DNA from: Faecalibaculum rodentium
Lineage (GTDB): Bacteria; Bacillota_I; Bacilli_A; Erysipelotrichales; Erysipelotrichaceae
DNA: 32,000 nt
Direction: 5' to 3'
NCBI RefSeq assembly: GCF_001564455.1
Contig: NZ_CP011391.1
Span: 1,770,001 to 1,802,000 of the forward strand
The position numbers and the translations under genes are program-made. Below, in pieces: positions 9,113-14,933 of this stretch. Within the stretch, counting starts at the first letter, position 1. Every line of letters begins with the position of its first letter. The notes under the pieces were generated by a model. The model did not search any database, had not been told where the DNA came from, and was given only the letters and a program-made list of their open reading frames with translations.

Positions 9113-9226
9113 CAGTTCTGCCCCCTTTTTCTCTACCATAGCCGATAGTCTGTCCCGTTACAACCAATTGAATTCTGAAGGGTGAACCATTGTCTCGTAT
9201 GTCACATGTTTGTAAGCGCATGCATC

Positions 9227-9269
9227 CAAAACAAAATCCGAATGCGGCAGTTTTGCCGCAAAACAAAAT
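9227..9269 (+). promoter_or_regulatory. Direct repeat pair flanking a small hairpin upstream of hxlA (candidate operator)
   Basis: CAAAACAAAAT occurs at 9227-9237 and again at 9259-9269. The two copies bracket the hairpin GCGGCA-GTTT-TGCCGC at 9244-9259, about 100 nt upstream of the hxlA ATG. Confidence 0.25.
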
Positions 9270-9366
9270 TCCAGCCTTTGTTTTTTCGCGAATTTTCCGT
9301 TTTCAGTGGTTCCGGGTTTTGAGGCACCGTATCATGCAGGTACAGACACACAAGGAGGAATGCATT

Positions 9367-9996
9367 ATGAAGCTGCAGGCTGCACTGGATACCCTGACAC
9401 TCGAGGAGTGCCTGGCGCTGCTGGATCACACAAAAGGAGCCGTGGATATCGCGGAAGTCGGCACACCGTTCATCATTGAATGCGGCATGGAACCCGTTCG
9501 TGCGATCAAGGCCGCTCATCCTGAGATCGAGGTGCTCGCAGATGCGAAGATCATGGACGCCGGAGAATTCGAGGCCGACAAGTGCTTTGAAGCCGGCGCG
9601 GATATCGTCACCGTCCTTGGGGTTTCCTATGATGAAACCATCGAAGGCGTGGTGCGGTCTGCGAAAACTCACGGCGGTCAGGTCATGGTGGACATGATCG
9701 GCGTGATGGACCTGGCTGCAAGAGCCCGGGAACTGGACAAAATGGGTGTGGACTACATCTGTGTCCACACGGCATTCGACATTCAGGGCACGGGGCAGAA
9801 AGATCCGCTGGAGGACCTGAAGGTGGTCAATGCGGTGATTGAAAACGCCAGAGCGGCGGTGGCCGGCGGTGTGAAGCTGGCCACAGTGGATGCGATCGCC
9901 GCAGAAAAGCCCGGTGTGATCGTGGTGGGCGGTGCCATCTGCAACGCCGATGATCCCGCAGTCATGGCCACGGCAATGAAAGAGAGAATGAAATAA
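9367..9996 (+). CDS. hxlA: 3-hexulose-6-phosphate synthase
   Basis: The protein aligns by eye along its whole length with Bacillus HxlA (MKLQAALD, EVGTP, VLADAKIMDAG, VDMIG, MGVDYICVHTAFD, AVAGGVKL, VVGGAI). AAGGAGGA lies 6 nt before the ATG at 9367. The 9190 start in the track is an upstream extension with no support. Confidence 0.85.
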   Translation: MKLQAALDTLTLEECLALLDHTKGAVDIAEVGTPFIIECGMEPVRAIKAAHPEIEVLADAKIMDAGEFEADKCFEAGADIVTVLGVSYDETIEGVVRSAKTHGGQVMVDMIGVMDLAARARELDKMGVDYICVHTAFDIQGTGQKDPLEDLKVVNAVIENARAAVAGGVKLATVDAIAAEKPGVIVVGGAICNADDPAVMATAMKERMK

Positions 9997-10556
9997 TGAA
10001 CTACAGGACAATTGCGGAAACCATTGTCAGCGAACTGAACCACACCCTGCTGTCGGTTTCCGACCAGAAGGCCAGGGAGTTCGTGGATCTCGTGGATGCA
10101 GCAGATGAAATCTTCTGTGCAGGAGCGGGCCGTTCCGGATTCCAGATCCGAGGCTTTGCGATGCGGCTCATGCACATGGGCAAAAAGAGCTATGTGGTGG
10201 GTGAAACCTGCACCCCGAACATCACGGAAAACGGCGTGCTGGTGATCTGTTCCGGATCGGGCAGCACGAAGTCGCTGGTCAACCACGCCGGGAAGGCAAA
10301 GAGCGTGGGCGCGAAAATCGCCCTGATCACCATCGATCCGGATTCTCCCATTGCGCAGATGGCGGATGTGGTCGTGGAAATCAGCGCCCCGAGCCCCAAG
10401 TCCGCGAAGGAAGGCGACATCCAGTCCATCCAGCCCATGGGCAGTCTCTTTGAGCAGAGCGAAGGGCTGTTCATGGATGCCTCGATCCTGATGCTGATGG
10501 AGAAAAATCACATGGACAGCGACACGATGTTCGGCCGCCACGCCAACATGGAATAA
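9996..10556 (+). CDS. hxlB: 6-phospho-3-hexuloisomerase (SIS domain)
   Basis: FCAGAGRSGFQIRGFAMRLMHMG, ICSGSGSTKSL, IQPMGSLFEQ and DSDTMFGRHANME closely match HxlB/PHI. The start overlaps the hxlA stop by 1 nt (TAATG). Confidence 0.85.
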   Translation: MNYRTIAETIVSELNHTLLSVSDQKAREFVDLVDAADEIFCAGAGRSGFQIRGFAMRLMHMGKKSYVVGETCTPNITENGVLVICSGSGSTKSLVNHAGKAKSVGAKIALITIDPDSPIAQMADVVVEISAPSPKSAKEGDIQSIQPMGSLFEQSEGLFMDASILMLMEKNHMDSDTMFGRHANME

Positions 10557-10572
10557 GAAAGGATGCAATCTC

Positions 10573-10932
10573 ATGAAGCAGGAAGTCATTGAATACATCG
10601 AAAAGCCCTGGGGATACGAAAAGCTGTATGCGGTGAACGACAGCTACGCCGTGAAGGAAATCGGTTTCAACAAAGGCGCCCGGTGCTCGCTGCAGAAGCA
10701 CGAACAGAAACTGGAACATGCCTATGTGCTCTACGGAAAACTCCAGGTGGAGGAAGACGACGAAAACGGCAATCTCCAGACAAACATCTACACACCGGGG
10801 ATGGTCTATGAGCAGAAGCCCGGATTCCGCCACCGCGTGACGGGTCTGGAAGACAGTGCCATCATCGAGGTCTCCACGCCGCAGCTGGACGATGTGATCC
10901 GGCTGCAGGATGATTATGGCCGGCAGTCCTGA
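10573..10932 (+). CDS. Small cupin-domain protein (type II phosphomannose-isomerase-like cupin)
   Basis: 119 aa with the cupin pattern KPWGYE...SLQKHEQKLEHAYVLYGKL...PGFRHRV. It is the third gene of the hxlAB operon. Confidence 0.65.
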   Translation: MKQEVIEYIEKPWGYEKLYAVNDSYAVKEIGFNKGARCSLQKHEQKLEHAYVLYGKLQVEEDDENGNLQTNIYTPGMVYEQKPGFRHRVTGLEDSAIIEVSTPQLDDVIRLQDDYGRQS

Positions 10933-10959
10933 CGGGCTGAAGGCGTCTGATCAGGAAAG

Positions 10960-10997
10960 GAACACCGCTTGTAGTGAAGAATGCGGTGTTCTTTTTA
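10960..10997 (+). terminator. Rho-independent terminator of the hxlAB-cupin operon
   Basis: GAACACCGC, a 14-nt loop, GCGGTGTTC, then TTTTTAT. Confidence 0.7.
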
Positions 10998-11045
10998 TGC
11001 TGTCACGGGACAGGATGCCGATGGTGGAAGGGCGAGATGGGGTGG

Positions 11046-12152
11046 TTATGCGTTGATTAGGCAGATAAATTTTGATTTGTCTATTTCCTTCTTCTCTATA
11101 GAAAATAGTTTTTGCTTCTCTAGTGGAGGAATAAATATAGTTAGATTTTTATATTTCTCAACATTAAAGTGCTTTTGTGCTGCACCCCCACTTCCCTTAC
11201 TGATCTGTTTTAACCCATGCGGAAAATTCGTATATGCACATAAATAAGTAGGGTCTATCTGGGTCAAATCAGGTTCAACTATGAGCACATCAATTGCATT
11301 GCTACCAGCATACTCTTTGGTTACAACAGCAGCCGTTCCTGGTGCTCCTGATCTTACTACGACGACATCATTTTCTTTAACCTCTGTCTTTTTATTGGAC
11401 TTAGCACCATCTTCTGTGAAGTACACCCAATTCGTATCATTGATGCAAAAAGGTGAAATGTTTAAACCACGAATCGCTTTATATCGTGTTGGGGAAGAAG
11501 AATAGAAACGTGTAGGCTTGATTACAAGGCCTACTTTTACTTTTGCAATACTTTCAACATTTGCGATTGGCCACTCCATTGAATTGTTAGTATCGCCGAA
11601 CATCTCAATAAATCGGGACTGGACTAATTGCTGTAAAGATTGTAATTGTATATTTTTAGCTTCTAAGAGATTGGCTAATAAGTCTAAGCGCTTTACAATT
11701 CTCTTTTGCAATTCATATGGTGGCAACTCAATCGAAAGTGAAGTGAGAGTTTTTTTGTTAAGTGTCACCCCCATAACTGCCTTATTTCCGTATTTCTCCC
11801 AATTTTGGGATAAACACCAATAGTATAAGTAAGAAGGATCAACTTTCTCACTTTTCTTATCTACAAATGCGATAATCGCTTCATTTGTGTACATATTATG
11901 TGTTGTGATAGATACTTTACCTAATGATAGCTTAAAACTCATTACTACAGTATCCTTAGGAATCATCTGTATCTTGGACTTGTCTATAGCCTGTTCGGTA
12001 ATTCTTTCCTTACTACAACTAATATATTTTCCTGAACTACTCAAATCTGATACAGAAAGCCACACGTTAGTCCCATTCCAGTAGTTAGGATTGCTACGAG
12101 AGGGTGTTTTTCCCATCTTCAACTCAAAAAGATCTGTAATCTTATACTTCAT
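11046..12152 (-). CDS. hsdS: Type I restriction specificity subunit HsdS (two TRDs, C-terminal conserved helix truncated)
   Basis: The parts are an N-terminus MKYKITDLFELKMGKTPS, a central conserved region LQQLVQSRFIEMFGD, a second TRD, and IPPLEKQKLF...DKSKF. The protein then ends early (ICLINA*) exactly where the sequence becomes GC-rich. I prefer the ATG at 12152, with AGAGAGG 7 nt upstream. Confidence 0.75.
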   Translation of the reverse strand: MKYKITDLFELKMGKTPSRSNPNYWNGTNVWLSVSDLSSSGKYISCSKERITEQAIDKSKIQMIPKDTVVMSFKLSLGKVSITTHNMYTNEAIIAFVDKKSEKVDPSYLYYWCLSQNWEKYGNKAVMGVTLNKKTLTSLSIELPPYELQKRIVKRLDLLANLLEAKNIQLQSLQQLVQSRFIEMFGDTNNSMEWPIANVESIAKVKVGLVIKPTRFYSSSPTRYKAIRGLNISPFCINDTNWVYFTEDGAKSNKKTEVKENDVVVVRSGAPGTAAVVTKEYAGSNAIDVLIVEPDLTQIDPTYLCAYTNFPHGLKQISKGSGGAAQKHFNVEKYKNLTIFIPPLEKQKLFSIEKKEIDKSKFICLINA

Positions 12153-12168
12153 TAACAAACCTCTCTTC

Positions 12169-12702
12169 TTATCGGGACTGGACAAGTTCATCCAATAGAA
12201 CGAGCAATTGTTTTTCGTTCTCTAGTAATAGTTGCATCAAACTTAGTCTATTAAGTCGTTTAGATTGATCACCTAAACTAGGTATATCGAGTGTAAAAGT
12301 ACCCAATTGATCCTTGGGAACGACTCTGCGACGAGCGGTTGTCCCCCGCAGTTTCTCTTTTATAAAAGTTAAAGCACGAGGGCCATGTAGATATGCTTCT
12401 AAATAGTTTGGATCAATAATGCTCTTTTTAACATCGCACACATCATAAGCAGGGCTCAAGATACCCTCATCCACAATCTTTTGGGAGTACATAACTCCTT
12501 CATCCATAGGAAATCCAAAGACAAATTGCCCTCTCCGCACAACTTTATAATTTGATCGATCTTTGGATGCAATATCCTTTTTAAACCTGTTATTCTGGAG
12601 CATGATTCCATTTTTGGAAGTCATTGATAGAACGGGTAAGTCTAAATCTCTAGCCCGCTTTACTTTTGCATAGCTGATTAAATCACCCAATTCATGCCAC
12701 AT
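12169..12702 (-). CDS. Single-TRD HsdS fragment (probable silent or decayed specificity cassette)
   Basis: 177-aa ORF with one TRD and a conserved region (LGDQSKRLNRL...LLDELVQSR). It stops exactly where SRF-x-E-x-F should continue. A degenerate conserved-region remnant and two in-frame TAG codons lie upstream at 12703-12783. Confidence 0.6.
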   Translation of the reverse strand: MWHELGDLISYAKVKRARDLDLPVLSMTSKNGIMLQNNRFKKDIASKDRSNYKVVRRGQFVFGFPMDEGVMYSQKIVDEGILSPAYDVCDVKKSIIDPNYLEAYLHGPRALTFIKEKLRGTTARRRVVPKDQLGTFTLDIPSLGDQSKRLNRLSLMQLLLENEKQLLVLLDELVQSR

Positions 12703-12797
12703 AGCTATACCTCTGTATAAACATGAGAACTATTTCTTCTATCCACTGCTTAAAACACTTCCAAACACCATATCGGGATTTGAATCTATCAGAGTTT

Positions 12798-13793
12798 CTA
12801 TGAAATATATTTCTGGTGGCTGATCTTCACATTGTTCTGGTTCACCATTGCGTACTGCATGGTGGTATCTATTTTGGTATGACCTAATAATTGCTGAACC
12901 TGTTCAACAGGCATCCCTTTATCAATGGCTCTGGTTGCCAGTGTTCTCCTGAATTTGTGCGGATGTACTTTCTTGATTCCCAGCTTTCTTCCCAGTTCCC
13001 GCAGCCGTATTTCCACTCCACTGATGGCCAATCGGTTGTGGGGATTGAGAAGAGACACAAAAAGTGCTGGATTCGCATCATTTCTTGAATCTAGATAGTT
13101 TTTCAAATGGATCTTGGTTCTTGCATCAAAATAAACCGGTCGTTCTTTGCTTCCTTTGCCAAAAACAATACATTCCCGATTATCGAAATCAATATCCTCA
13201 ATATTCAGCTTGACCAGCTCTCCCACCCGCATACCTGTGGATGCCAGAAGATCTATCATTGCCAGATCCCGAATATTTGATGCGTTGTCCCTTAGTATTT
13301 CCAGGTTTTCATCTGAATACGTTTCTTTTACTGTCTTTGGGGTTTTGATTTTATGAATTCTTCGAACTGGACTCTTTAAAATGTAGCTCTCGTCTTCAAG
13401 CCAGGAAAAGAAGGTGGACATAATTCGCCGAATGTTATCGATGTTGGACTTGCTGCAATTATTGATAGTCTGATAATCGGATAAATACTGTCTTAAGTCT
13501 TCCGTTGTAATGTGAGTAACGGAGATATCAAGAACAGAAAGCATTTTTCGAATGGTGGCCTTGTAGTATTTCAAGGTTTTGGCGCTGCATCCTTCTATAC
13601 TCTTGGCGGTGATAAATAGATCTAAGTAATCTTCATTTGACTTCTTGTCAGCATCACTTATTTGCGATTCTGATTCTTTTACATCCACACGGTAAAAACA
13701 ATGATTCAAAACCTTCTGCAATTGCTGGAGCTGGTAATTATTCAAAACAGGAAGCATTTCACGGGTGATATCTGCAATCAGTTGCTGTTTCAT
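12798..13793 (-). CDS. Tyrosine site-specific recombinase (XerC/D-like integrase)
   Basis: There is an N-terminal SAM-like core-binding domain (TLKYYKATIRKML...ITTEDLRQYL). Catalytic motifs are GMRVGEL (R), HPHKFRRT (H-x-x-R) and LGHTKIDTTMQY (H...Y). GAAGGAG lies 5 nt before the ATG. Confidence 0.9.
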   Translation of the reverse strand: MKQQLIADITREMLPVLNNYQLQQLQKVLNHCFYRVDVKESESQISDADKKSNEDYLDLFITAKSIEGCSAKTLKYYKATIRKMLSVLDISVTHITTEDLRQYLSDYQTINNCSKSNIDNIRRIMSTFFSWLEDESYILKSPVRRIHKIKTPKTVKETYSDENLEILRDNASNIRDLAMIDLLASTGMRVGELVKLNIEDIDFDNRECIVFGKGSKERPVYFDARTKIHLKNYLDSRNDANPALFVSLLNPHNRLAISGVEIRLRELGRKLGIKKVHPHKFRRTLATRAIDKGMPVEQVQQLLGHTKIDTTMQYAMVNQNNVKISHQKYIS

Positions 13794-13837
13794 GGGATCT
13801 CCTTCAGAACAATCTGGTTCCTTCTAAATATCCCCAA

Positions 13838-13874
13838 TCGTAAAACAGCATTGTCTCAACCAACAATGCTGTTC
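13838..13874 (-). terminator. Hairpin or weak terminator ending the hsdRMS-accessory transcription unit
   Basis: The minus strand reads AACAGCATTGT, an 8-nt loop, ACAATGCTGTT, then TTACGATT. The stem is a perfect 11 bp but the T-tract is short. Confidence 0.4.
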
Positions 13875-13888
13875 TTGTATACCTGCAT

Positions 13889-14296
13889 TCAGGACATTTC
13901 TTTAAAGCGCTCTACAGCCATTTCCGGATCCAGTGCATGGAAACCGATCCAGCTGGTATTCATGGTTTCAGCATCTGCCTGATGGTAAATGTTTCTGCTG
14001 GATTCTCCTGTCAGATAATGCCAGTAACGATACAAATATCCAGTCCAGTACATCATTTCCTGGTCATATAGAGGCCCATTTCTCTTGAAACCACCAGCTT
14101 CATCACCCAGCTCATCCAGCAGATATTCCTCTCCCATCCATTGCAGCCGGTCATATGTATCATCCAGATGCGATGCCACGGAACTGGTCATAAACGTTCT
14201 GATGAATTCCTGAGAATCGAAACCGGCTTTCACTGAATTTTCAAACAGCCGGCCTTGAATATCACACAGCTGTCTCTGATCCAGACTCAAATCCAT
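13889..14296 (-). CDS. Hypothetical small acidic/aromatic protein, partner of the DUF3990-like gene (possibly DUF3791-like N-terminal half)
   Basis: GGAGGA lies 5 nt before the ATG at 14296 (MDLSLDQRQL...), and the start lies 35 nt inside the upstream gene. The motif LQWMGEEYLLDEL resembles my recollection of DUF3791. The C-terminal half is aromatic-rich (YWTGYLYRYWHY). Its function is unknown. Confidence 0.55.
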   Translation of the reverse strand: MDLSLDQRQLCDIQGRLFENSVKAGFDSQEFIRTFMTSSVASHLDDTYDRLQWMGEEYLLDELGDEAGGFKRNGPLYDQEMMYWTGYLYRYWHYLTGESSRNIYHQADAETMNTSWIGFHALDPEMAVERFKEMS

Positions 14297-14933
14297 TCCA
14301 TTCCTCCACGATTTCATCAAAGTATCTGCCTTCCCGACGATACTTTCTGGCTACTTTTTCCACGAGTTCGATTCCTGCTTTTCTGTTTTTAAAACTCAGT
14401 TCTTTCAAAGCTTCGCATTCAGGTCCATCAATGTATCTTTCTTCAACCACTGATATTTGCGAACACGCCTTTTCTGAAACTGCAACATACTGTTCTCCAA
14501 GTTCCAGCCCCATCAGCGAGTGAATCAGAGCAGCATCCGTAATATCCCCTTGGAAGAAGCGGTCAAGTACAACAAACATCCGGTCATTGGCGATCAGCCC
14601 TTTGATAACATCATACCCACTGACATAGGATTGAATCGCATTATACAGGGGCAGATCCTTATATTTTTCTAGTTTGCCCCTGTAATACGCGATTACTAAT
14701 GCCCAGGTCAAATCTGCCCCCAGTTCCAGCACTCTCAAGTCAGATAAATCCAGCTCAACAGTGTATAGAACTGGACTTTCTTCATTGTGAATCAGTGTTA
14801 GTGGCTGCCAGACGACTGTACCCATGTAGAAACCGGTACCAAAATCGCATTTGTCTCTGCTGATTGGTGCTATGGGACCATTTAAGCCACTACGAGATCC
14901 GTGAAAAAGTCTGATTTTCTCCCCTTTACTCAT
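14262..14933 (-). CDS. DUF3990-like protein with PARP-type H-Y-E (ADP-ribosyltransferase-like) signature
   Basis: The motifs LFHGSRSG, FGTGFYMGT, LYTVELD and YDVIKGLIANDRMF fit the DUF3990 pattern as I recall it (LYHGS / FGKGFY / D-I-V-x-G-P-I-A-D-D). The ATG overlaps the hsdS stop (ATGA at 14930-14933), with AGGAG 8 nt upstream. Confidence 0.65.
   Translation of the reverse strand: MSKGEKIRLFHGSRSGLNGPIAPISRDKCDFGTGFYMGTVVWQPLTLIHNEESPVLYTVELDLSDLRVLELGADLTWALVIAYYRGKLEKYKDLPLYNAIQSYVSGYDVIKGLIANDRMFVVLDRFFQGDITDAALIHSLMGLELGEQYVAVSEKACSQISVVEERYIDGPECEALKELSFKNRKAGIELVEKVARKYRREGRYFDEIVEEWNGFESGSETAV

Follow-up and report, generated by a model that had tools for sequence, protein, structure and literature searches.

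A DUF3990 gene and its small partner in a phase-variable Type I restriction-modification operon of Faecalibaculum rodentium: a candidate ADP-ribosyltransferase-fold conflict module

Introduction

Candidate defence systems have been nominated from genes embedded in defence loci, and PDC-M42, PDC-M13 and PDC-M10 were nominated through their embedding in Type I restriction-modification (R-M), BREX and DISARM loci by Payne, Hughes, Fineran and Jackson (2024; bioRxiv 10.1101/2024.01.29.577857). The 145 PDCs of that study are predictions, kept separate from seven confirmed systems, and PrrC, which is found almost exclusively inside hsd loci, is discussed there as the paradigm (10.1101/2024.01.29.577857). 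According to the supplementary table, the family FAM_00403 occurs in PDC-M10, PDC-M13 and PDC-M42, and PDC-M42 corresponds to CAS_00150, with the order FAM_00403>>FAM_03189>>FAM_00360 (10.1101/2024.01.29.577857). Here we describe a gene pair of this kind in a 32,000-nt stretch of the Faecalibaculum rodentium genome (GCF_001564455.1, NZ_CP011391.1, positions 1,770,001-1,802,000; hereafter the window, in which all positions are counted). The pair consists of a gene for a 223-aa protein of the Pfam family DUF3990 and an overlapping gene for a 135-aa partner, placed behind hsdS in a Type I hsd operon.

DUF3990 is included in the Pfam clan of ADP-ribosyltransferases (ARTs), alongside DarT, RES, PARP and others (PMC7955679). 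It also forms the C-terminal domain of Rhs effectors of the type VI secretion system, such as Serratia Rhs5 and Enterobacter RhsA (PMC4524185, PMC10763514). Our literature search found no functional study of PDC-M42, PDC-M13 or PDC-M10. A preliminary description of the window, made from its letters alone, had stated that no described defence system built on this family was known, which does not hold: PADLOC-DB models of PDC-M42, PDC-M13 and PDC-M10 match at the locus, and these systems are still candidates only. Family, fold class and R-M embedding are already on record, and the locus is a clear example of a known candidate.

The reading that we favour, at a probability of about 0.5, is that the pair is an autonomous ART-fold toxin/neutraliser conflict module that has been captured by a mobile, phase-variable Type I R-M island.

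A coupled gene pair behind hsdS

The features of the operon and of the pair are as follows.

14262-14933, minus strand: DUF3990 protein (223 aa), ART-like fold; from Pfam PF13151, PADLOC, AlphaFold2, Foldseek and residue conservation
13889-14296, minus strand: partner (135 aa), acidic, all-helical, N-terminal half distantly related to DUF3791; from PADLOC PDC-M42B, AlphaFold2 and alignment
14930-14946, minus strand: hsdS/DUF3990 junction, read from the sequence
14262-14307, minus strand: DUF3990/partner junction, read from the sequence
13842-13875, minus strand: stem-loop 3' of the partner gene, from fold energy; possible weak terminator or attenuator before the recombinase gene
14930-16027, minus strand: expressed specificity subunit hsdS (365 aa); Pfam Methylase_S, PADLOC Specificity_I (E=6.8e-72)
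16020-17546, minus strand: hsdM (508 aa); 81% DNA identity to the gene of the related contig L001 that carries HsdM_N and N6_Mtase
17573-20866, minus strand: hsdR (1097 aa); synteny with the L001 gene annotated HSDR_N, ResIII and EcoEI_R_C

The layout given in the preliminary description was borne out in full, as the order hsdR-hsdM-hsdS-[223 aa]-[135 aa], the ATGA, both ribosome-binding sites, the 35-nt overlap and the hairpin are all present in the sequence. The hsdS TGA (14932-14930) overlaps the ATG of the DUF3990 gene (14933-14931) as ATGA, and an AGGAG at 14946-14942 lies 8 nt 5' of this ATG. Judged by this junction, the DUF3990 gene is translationally coupled to hsdS and wired into the hsd operon. 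The partner gene starts 35 nt inside the end of the DUF3990 gene, with GGAGGA at 14307-14302, 5 nt ahead of the ATG at 14296, and the same 35-nt overlap is shared with the relatives L001, L089 and L092. The ATG at 14296 is favoured over an upstream TTG at 14320 because partner homologues start at the same residue (M..L.L..RQLCDIQ). Downstream, the stem-loop at about 13875-13842 has a 14-bp stem and a fold energy of -22.2 kcal/mol (z=-3.9 against shuffles); a consensus terminator scan did not call it, and its U tail is weak. In comparisons with relatives, the two small genes show dN values of 0.13-0.32 and a dS that is saturated or nearly so; both are thus under purifying selection.

Against the PADLOC models, the 223-aa protein matched PDC-M13B (5e-16), PDC-M42A (1.4e-11) and PDC-M10A, and the partner matched PDC-M42B (E=1.3e-11); PDC-M13A was also among the models matched by the pair. 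Components A and B of PDC-M42 are thereby adjacent on one strand in the window. As the models of all three cassettes match the 223-aa protein, FAM_00403 is probably the DUF3990 family; an annotation of this family was not found. The recombinase gene that follows the pair was considered as the third PDC-M42 component and set aside, since its product matches no PDC model.

The DUF3990 protein and its H-Y-D signature

The 223-aa protein matched DUF3990 (PF13151) with E=8.5e-26 and 90.9 bits against a cut-off of 32.2, and residues 7-160 spanned profile positions 1-150 of 152, a match far above chance that confirms the family suggested in the preliminary description. Neither protein of the pair matched NCBIfam. 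An AlphaFold2 model built with 38 homologues reached a pLDDT of 85 and a pTM of 0.81, and its 14 best matches in the PDB by Foldseek were all ART folds, namely PARP4, tankyrase 2, diphtheria toxin with a homologue, and the toxins RES (of Xre-RES) and ParT. The anticipated resemblance to ART/PARP folds was therefore recovered, with weak scores (E=3e-3 to 0.5, TM 0.3-0.55). When PDB sequences were searched with the family profile, the sole match, to the repetitive protein Crov588, was spurious. The ART fold thus holds at the superfamily level, as was already implied by Pfam.

The motifs LFHGSRSG, FGTGFYMGT, LYTVELD and YDVIKGLIANDRMF are present in the 223-aa protein, and the first three had been taken to supply an H-Y-E triad of H11, Y36 and E60. 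Residue conservation over 250 homologues supports the first two members and not the third. H11 is conserved in 98%, S13 in 97%, Y36 and Y57 in 99%, D108 in 98% and Q148 in 100%; position 60 is E in 23%, with S, K, D, N and R about as common, and E60 was therefore ruled out as a catalytic residue. Remote relatives of 21-30% identity, from Bacteroides, Segatella, Collinsella and Lactobacillus, keep H11, G12, S13, D30, G32, G34, F35, Y36, Y57, W77, R85, Y107, G112, A115 and Q148 invariant, with either D or E at position 108 throughout, in the context Y-[DE]-h-h-x-G. The conserved signature can be written as H11-G-S13, D30-F-G-x-G-F-Y36, Y57 and D108.

The catalytic acid of ART folds lies at the start of strand 5, and in the AlphaFold2 model D108 directly precedes strand 5 (residues 109-113). 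By conservation and position, the active-site signature of DUF3990 is H-Y-D, formed by H11, Y36 and D108, and these three residues would line one pocket. D117 (IANDRMF) was also considered as the acid and rejected, as it is conserved in 94%, below D108, and is G in one remote relative. At the C-terminus, residues 165-217 make up a helical extension that is specific to the subfamily and has the motif YRREGR[YF]FDEI; short DUF3990 members (~160 aa) do not have this extension.

A conserved all-helical partner

The partner is a protein of pI 4.5, and both proteins of the pair are acidic. Its AlphaFold2 model is all-helical, with nine helices and a pLDDT of 89. The fold comparison that had been proposed for both proteins gave here a confident model and no ART match, and fold searches of the PDB and BFVD found no credible analogue of any kind (best E>1). 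Against Pfam DUF3791 the partner scored 15 bits, below the cut-off of 25 (E=0.025). All 36 partner homologues compared with this profile matched it weakly over the same region, at best with 9e-7. On these matches, the N-terminal half of the partner is a distant DUF3791 relative and not a formal member of the family.

Three motifs are invariant among partner homologues: QLCDIQGRLFE, QWxGEEY and RxWH (Y89-R90, W92-H93), the last of which reads YRYWH in the window. The HEPN motif has the spacing Rx4-6H. A HEPN-like reading of the partner was dropped, because YRYWH is Rx2H and its spacing is not that of HEPN.

An autonomous cassette of gut bacteria

Relatives of the pair are numerous. A word-index search returned 1,897 DUF3990 clusters and 1,911 partner clusters at 90% identity, and an exhaustive search returned 1,810 representatives at 50% identity (E<=1e-3). 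At least 595 species-level genomes encode a relative, and the carriers are mostly gut Lachnospiraceae, Oscillospiraceae, Erysipelotrichaceae and Coriobacteriia. Neither protein matched PHROGs, and the phage and plasmid collections gave five distant matches each, at 24-30% identity. With so few matches in each collection, the pair is not typically borne by phages or plasmids.

Gene neighbourhoods were surveyed around DUF3990 in the best 80 species loci and around the partner in 80 metagenome loci. Of the 80 DUF3990 loci, 78 have the partner directly behind DUF3990 and the other two end at a contig edge, so that the partner is present in all 78 complete loci; the commonest geometry is an 8-nt overlap. 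From the partner side, DUF3990 is present in 68 of 80 loci and one more ends at a contig edge, and a full DUF3990 gene is missing from 11 of the 79 loci whose upstream sequence is intact. Two of these orphan-type loci carry an intact partner gene beside DUF3990 remnants (L125 5904-5960 and L175 5097-5192). At L175, an AbiEi gene occupies the DUF3990 site.

Alternative companions of the partner were also found. In six loci (L139, L141, L142, L144, L148 and L153) a partner homologue lies 4 nt behind a gene for an AbiLi-like AAA_21 ATPase and DUF3990 is absent; at L139 4716-6456, for example, the ATPase matches PADLOC AbiLi with 1.9e-84 and the partner homologue matches PDC-M42B with 6e-13. The ATPase-linked partner subclade is also found behind DUF3990 proteins with a helix-turn-helix (HTH) domain, which makes the ATPase pairing look like the product of a replacement. 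The AbiLi-like ATPase and the DUF3791-like protein may form a distinct, undescribed pair. At L162 the partner lies behind an unrelated DUF2828/DUF7788 protein. In L123 and L127, orphan partner genes (5995-6429 and 3416-3850) lie between a divergent AAA_21 ATPase gene, of the PD-T4-4_A/HEC-02-like type, and an AbiEi gene.

The direct neighbours of the DUF3990 loci are heterogeneous and mostly housekeeping genes, such as those for PGI, phosphoketolase, MatE, FtsZ, UvrB, PBP and AddAB. Defence neighbours are scattered and include JetA, MADS, SoFic, PDC-S01, a type IV restriction enzyme and AbiE, and AbiE, TIR/SpbK, Wadjet and MADS occur among the neighbours more often than expected. Adjacency to abortive infection (Abi), TIR and R-M genes is repeated, not dominant. 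Only three of the 80 loci (L021, L037 and L051) have an hsdM gene within 10 kb, and at least 74 have none. In these three loci (L021 9364-19019, L037 4562-11096 and L051 9788-17415) the pair lies directly upstream of a Type I R-M island on the same strand, and the islands hold further embedded candidates, namely PDC-S13, the TIR-type PDC-S35 and SpbK.

Outside the window, the order hsdRMS-DUF3990-partner-int-hsdS' was seen only in the closest relatives, P0002 (80% identity, Faecalibaculum), P0003 (69%, Allobaculum) and P0004 (64%). The embedding in hsd operons is confined to this subclade (P0001-P0004), at 64-80% identity. The embedded unit occupies different chromosomal sites among these relatives, and the hsd-embedded subclade has no N-terminal HTH. 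HTH-bearing homologues include P0113, P0026 and P0080 (~282 aa in total) and those of loci L184 and L180. In Allobaculum sp. (L089 1-4568), an IS110-family transposase gene splits hsdR, with hsdM, hsdS, the pair and the recombinase gene intact.

Another arrangement, in which a DUF3791 gene precedes a short (~160-aa) DUF3990 gene, was seen in Segatella copri (L098 2783-3701) and on a Bacteroides uniformis plasmid (L096 4567-5489). The Segatella locus has a further small open reading frame (ORF) after DUF3990, which gives a three-gene layout of the PDC-M13 type, and the pair in Bacteroides lies beside ORF6N, Fic and RhuM genes.

hsdS shuffling and the surrounding island

The remaining features of the island lie downstream of the pair, except for the last, which spans it.

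12798-13793, minus strand: tyrosine recombinase of the hsdS shuffling system; Pfam Phage_integrase (2.7e-36) and Phage_int_SAM_4 (1.2e-14)
12169-12702, minus strand: spare hsdS, 177 aa; named by position and synteny, with counterparts that carry Methylase_S
11046-12191, minus strand: spare hsdS, 381 aa; Pfam Methylase_S (2.8e-32)
10950-21000, no strand assigned: low-GC island with the R-M genes, the pair and the recombinase gene; 34-55% GC, flanks 55-63%

The hsd locus is of the phase-variable type, because a tyrosine recombinase gene and spare hsdS pieces, which the preliminary description had missed, lie downstream of the pair. A Pfam scan of the 177-aa ORF returned no families; its counterparts in L002 and L092 (183 and 178 aa) carry Methylase_S. 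Expressed and spare hsdS all lie on one strand and have two direct repeats, D1 and D2, in common (15531-15561 / 12158-12188 / 11599-11629 and 15000-15021 / 11068-11089). A shufflon with inverted repeats was therefore ruled out, as both the repeats and the spare copies are in direct orientation.

Rearrangement was observed directly in two contigs from one population, L001 and L002, which are 100% identical elsewhere. Between L001 9352-13295 and L002 8793-12736, hsdS pieces of 583 nt and 1,142 nt are reciprocally swapped in direct orientation across a constant 2,247-nt DUF3990-partner-int block, and the junctions share 11 and 17 nt. Several hsdS copies, a recombinase and rearranged variants within one population are thus found together, as in phase-variable Type I R-M systems. 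The form of the swap suggests cassette exchange via an excised circle, unlike the usual inversion shufflon. By the simplest route, such a circle would be excised at one repeat pair and re-inserted at the other, with the DUF3990-partner pair carried on the excised DNA.

The low-GC island was probably acquired horizontally; no tRNA or repeat was found at its flanks. Between the spare hsdS and a Flg_new-like gene, the window holds three plus-strand ORFs (9190-10932), which by eye resemble genes for a 3-hexulose-6-phosphate synthase, a 6-phospho-3-hexuloisomerase and a cupin. In L001 the gap between the spare hsdS and the Flg_new gene is only ~90 nt, and the three sugar-phosphate and cupin-like ORFs are apparently absent. 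Two tandem tRNA-Gln(CTG) genes lie elsewhere in the window, at 28524-28681.

Weighing the explanations

In the favoured reading, the 223-aa protein would most likely act with NAD+ on a cellular or phage target, which it would modify or deplete, and the partner, produced by coupled translation from the same transcript, would most likely control or neutralise the enzyme by direct binding. The module is present as an autonomous cassette in hundreds of gut Firmicutes and Actinobacteria species, and an HTH-less version of it would have been captured between hsdS and the recombinase gene in Faecalibaculum and Allobaculum and now be expressed from the hsd operon. Its likely role in the island would be a second defence layer of the abortive-infection type, an addiction function or both. 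The module would not depend mechanistically on the Hsd proteins, since no hsdM gene occurs within 10 kb of the pair in at least 74 of the 80 species loci.

This reading starts from what the analysis established directly, namely the family assignment, the fold class, the conserved residues, the coupling of the genes and their distribution. The two genes have the form of Type II toxin-antitoxin genes, being small, co-directional and coupled, with a toxin gene that never occurs alone and orphan partners that are tolerated. That DUF3990 is never alone and the partner sometimes is fits a toxic DUF3990 protein. The toxin reading is further supported because DUF3990 fills the toxin slot of Rhs proteins and has an ART fold with a conserved signature, and the conflict-module reading because of the cassette-like insertion at many sites and the repeated adjacency to Abi, TIR and R-M genes. 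From these observations we infer NAD+ use, toxicity, neutralisation by the partner and an anti-phage effect. The toxin/immunity reading of the pair, which the preliminary description had offered as one option, is reasonable.

Several points weigh against it. Both proteins are acidic, and the conserved acid of the signature is Asp where the canonical residue is Glu. About 40% of homologues have an N-terminal XRE-type HTH, which is fused to DUF3990 and not to the partner. In comparable samples the mean column identity is 64% for the partner and 51% for DUF3990, and the partner has many invariant polar residues (C11, D12, R16, E19, H93 and H120); such conservation is unusual for a simple antitoxin. 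A dedicated antitoxin would also not be expected behind an AbiLi-like ATPase. Further, we found no paper testing DUF3990 or DUF3791 for toxicity, NAD+ use or phage defence. Confidence is moderate because of the partner conservation, the AbiLi-like pairing and the position of the HTH on DUF3990 rather than on the partner.

Three other explanations tie the pair to its R-M surroundings. The preliminary description drew on PrrC, by analogy with which the Hsd complex would hold the ART-like protein latent until a phage anti-restriction protein triggers firing. The translational coupling to hsdS agrees with such a guard, as do the embedded layout kept across the 64-80% identity subclade, the C-terminal tail and 35-nt overlap peculiar to that subclade, and the three further species with the pair upstream of Type I R-M genes, about 10 times the chance adjacency by a rough estimate. 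The analogy fails on distribution, however, as the pair is stand-alone in most species and hsdM lies within 10 kb in 3 of 80 loci, while PrrC is almost exclusively embedded. The 223-aa protein also has no similarity to PrrC, and in Allobaculum the pair is intact where IS110 splits hsdR, so that a guard of this type is very improbable. It is somewhat less improbable, yet still distinctly unlikely, that the embedded pair has been co-opted into the R-M system as a fail-safe, which would kill or arrest cells when hsd expression collapses after phage shut-off, anti-restriction, or loss of an excised circle with the recombinase gene and hsdS. This idea arises because the HTH has been lost, translation would come only from the hsd transcript and the pair lies on an excisable segment; if true, it would amount to an ADP-ribosylation-based backup tied to a phase-variable restriction system. 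The same segment invites an explanation as an addiction module for the recombining hsdS cassette, in which cells that lose the circle would be killed and the phase-variation machinery and the island stabilised. The reciprocal direct hsdS swap between L001 and L002 across the constant DUF3990-partner-int block, the matching direct repeats in the window and the mobility of the whole island speak for it. No circle was observed, though, and homologous recombination or gene conversion could give the same swap; a recombinase gene adjoins few homologues (2 of 77 upstream neighbours, 3 of 80 loci), and addiction could explain the embedded subclade only. We rate it as distinctly unlikely.

Two further explanations concern the pair wherever it occurs. 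Its roles could be reversed or shared, with the partner as effector or with an enzymatic or nucleic-acid-binding activity of its own, and DUF3990 as an NAD+-dependent sensor or regulator that, for example, ADP-ribosylates the partner or a signal. The features already counted against a simple antitoxin point this way: the partner is the more conserved protein, has invariant Cys, His, Asp, Glu and Arg, and leaves the HTH to DUF3990 in many homologues. Its homologue takes the effector position behind the AbiLi-like ATPase in six loci, and lies beside AAA_21 in L123 and L127; the placement behind the ATPase matches the layout of PARIS and AbiL, in which the ATPase comes first and the effector second (PMC13064643). 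Intact partners beside decayed DUF3990 genes (L125 and L175) are nevertheless hard to square with a toxic partner restrained by DUF3990, in Rhs proteins it is DUF3990 that serves as the secreted toxin domain, the ATPase-linked cases seem confined to one or two lineages, and the partner has no recognisable catalytic fold; we consider a reversal unlikely. The pair could also lack any function in conflict, as an HTH-linked regulator responsive to NAD+ or ADP-ribose, or as an RNA or DNA repair transferase similar to Tpt1/KptA, that is in the island by chance. The XRE-type HTH of many homologues, the mostly housekeeping neighbours, the absence of both proteins from PHROGs and their rarity in phages and plasmids are compatible with this, and the ART clan has non-toxin members (PMC7955679). 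The patchy, cassette-like distribution with variable insertion sites, the repeated adjacency to Abi, TIR and R-M genes, the use of the domain as an Rhs toxin and the nomination through embedding in defence loci make it improbable.

An autonomous toxin/neutraliser module captured by the island thus remains the reading that we prefer. DUF3990/DUF3791 cassettes are common in gut bacteria, and the locus in the window shows one in compact natural form, with expression from a Type I R-M operon. It offers experimental handles, namely H11, Y36 and D108 as the triad in place of E60, and the alternative pairing with an AbiLi-like ATPase; the unusual conservation of the partner may mean that it has an activity of its own. 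If the enzyme is an NAD+-dependent toxin, it would represent a new ART family in bacterial immunity, and a single result would validate several 'guilt-by-embedding' candidates.

Comparison with known systems

The closest described counterpart is the candidate PDC-M42, as both window proteins match its models and the embedding in an hsd operon is exactly that of the nomination. PDC-M42 is listed as three families, however, and a third component was not recognised among the ORFs of the window that were scanned. Rhs effectors share the Pfam domain, and a small gene downstream of theirs is presumed to encode the immunity protein. They are secreted polymorphic-toxin tips of Proteobacteria, whereas the window protein is free-standing and cytoplasmic, belongs to a Firmicutes species and has a conserved DUF3791-like partner.

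The ART toxin-antitoxin systems Xre-RES, ParST, DarTG and MbcTA resemble the pair in that a second gene is tightly linked to the one for a small ART-fold protein, and RES (9r35) and ParT (6d0h) are among the best structural matches of the 223-aa model. The name RES implies an R-E-S triad, whereas the DUF3990 signature is H-Y-D. DarT and RES are in the same Pfam clan as DUF3990 (PMC7955679). In contrast to this likeness, these toxins have no sequence-level relationship to the 223-aa protein. The window partner is without a known fold and is not an Xre HTH protein, a macrodomain or a ParS/MbcA-like protein, and the HTH, when present, is fused to the ART-like protein.

Like EcoprrI with PrrC, the locus has an additional gene within a Type I hsd operon, on the strand of the hsd genes and co-expressed with them. 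The families are unrelated, and PrrC is almost always embedded, whereas the DUF3990 pair is mostly stand-alone. The R-M island itself compares with SpnD39III/creX, a phase-variable Type I R-M system with a dedicated recombinase: both combine hsdRMS with a tyrosine recombinase and spare hsdS, and hsdS arrangements vary within a population. In the window, unlike SpnD39III/creX, the spare hsdS and the repeats are direct, not inverted, and a two-gene ART-like module lies between hsdS and the recombinase gene.

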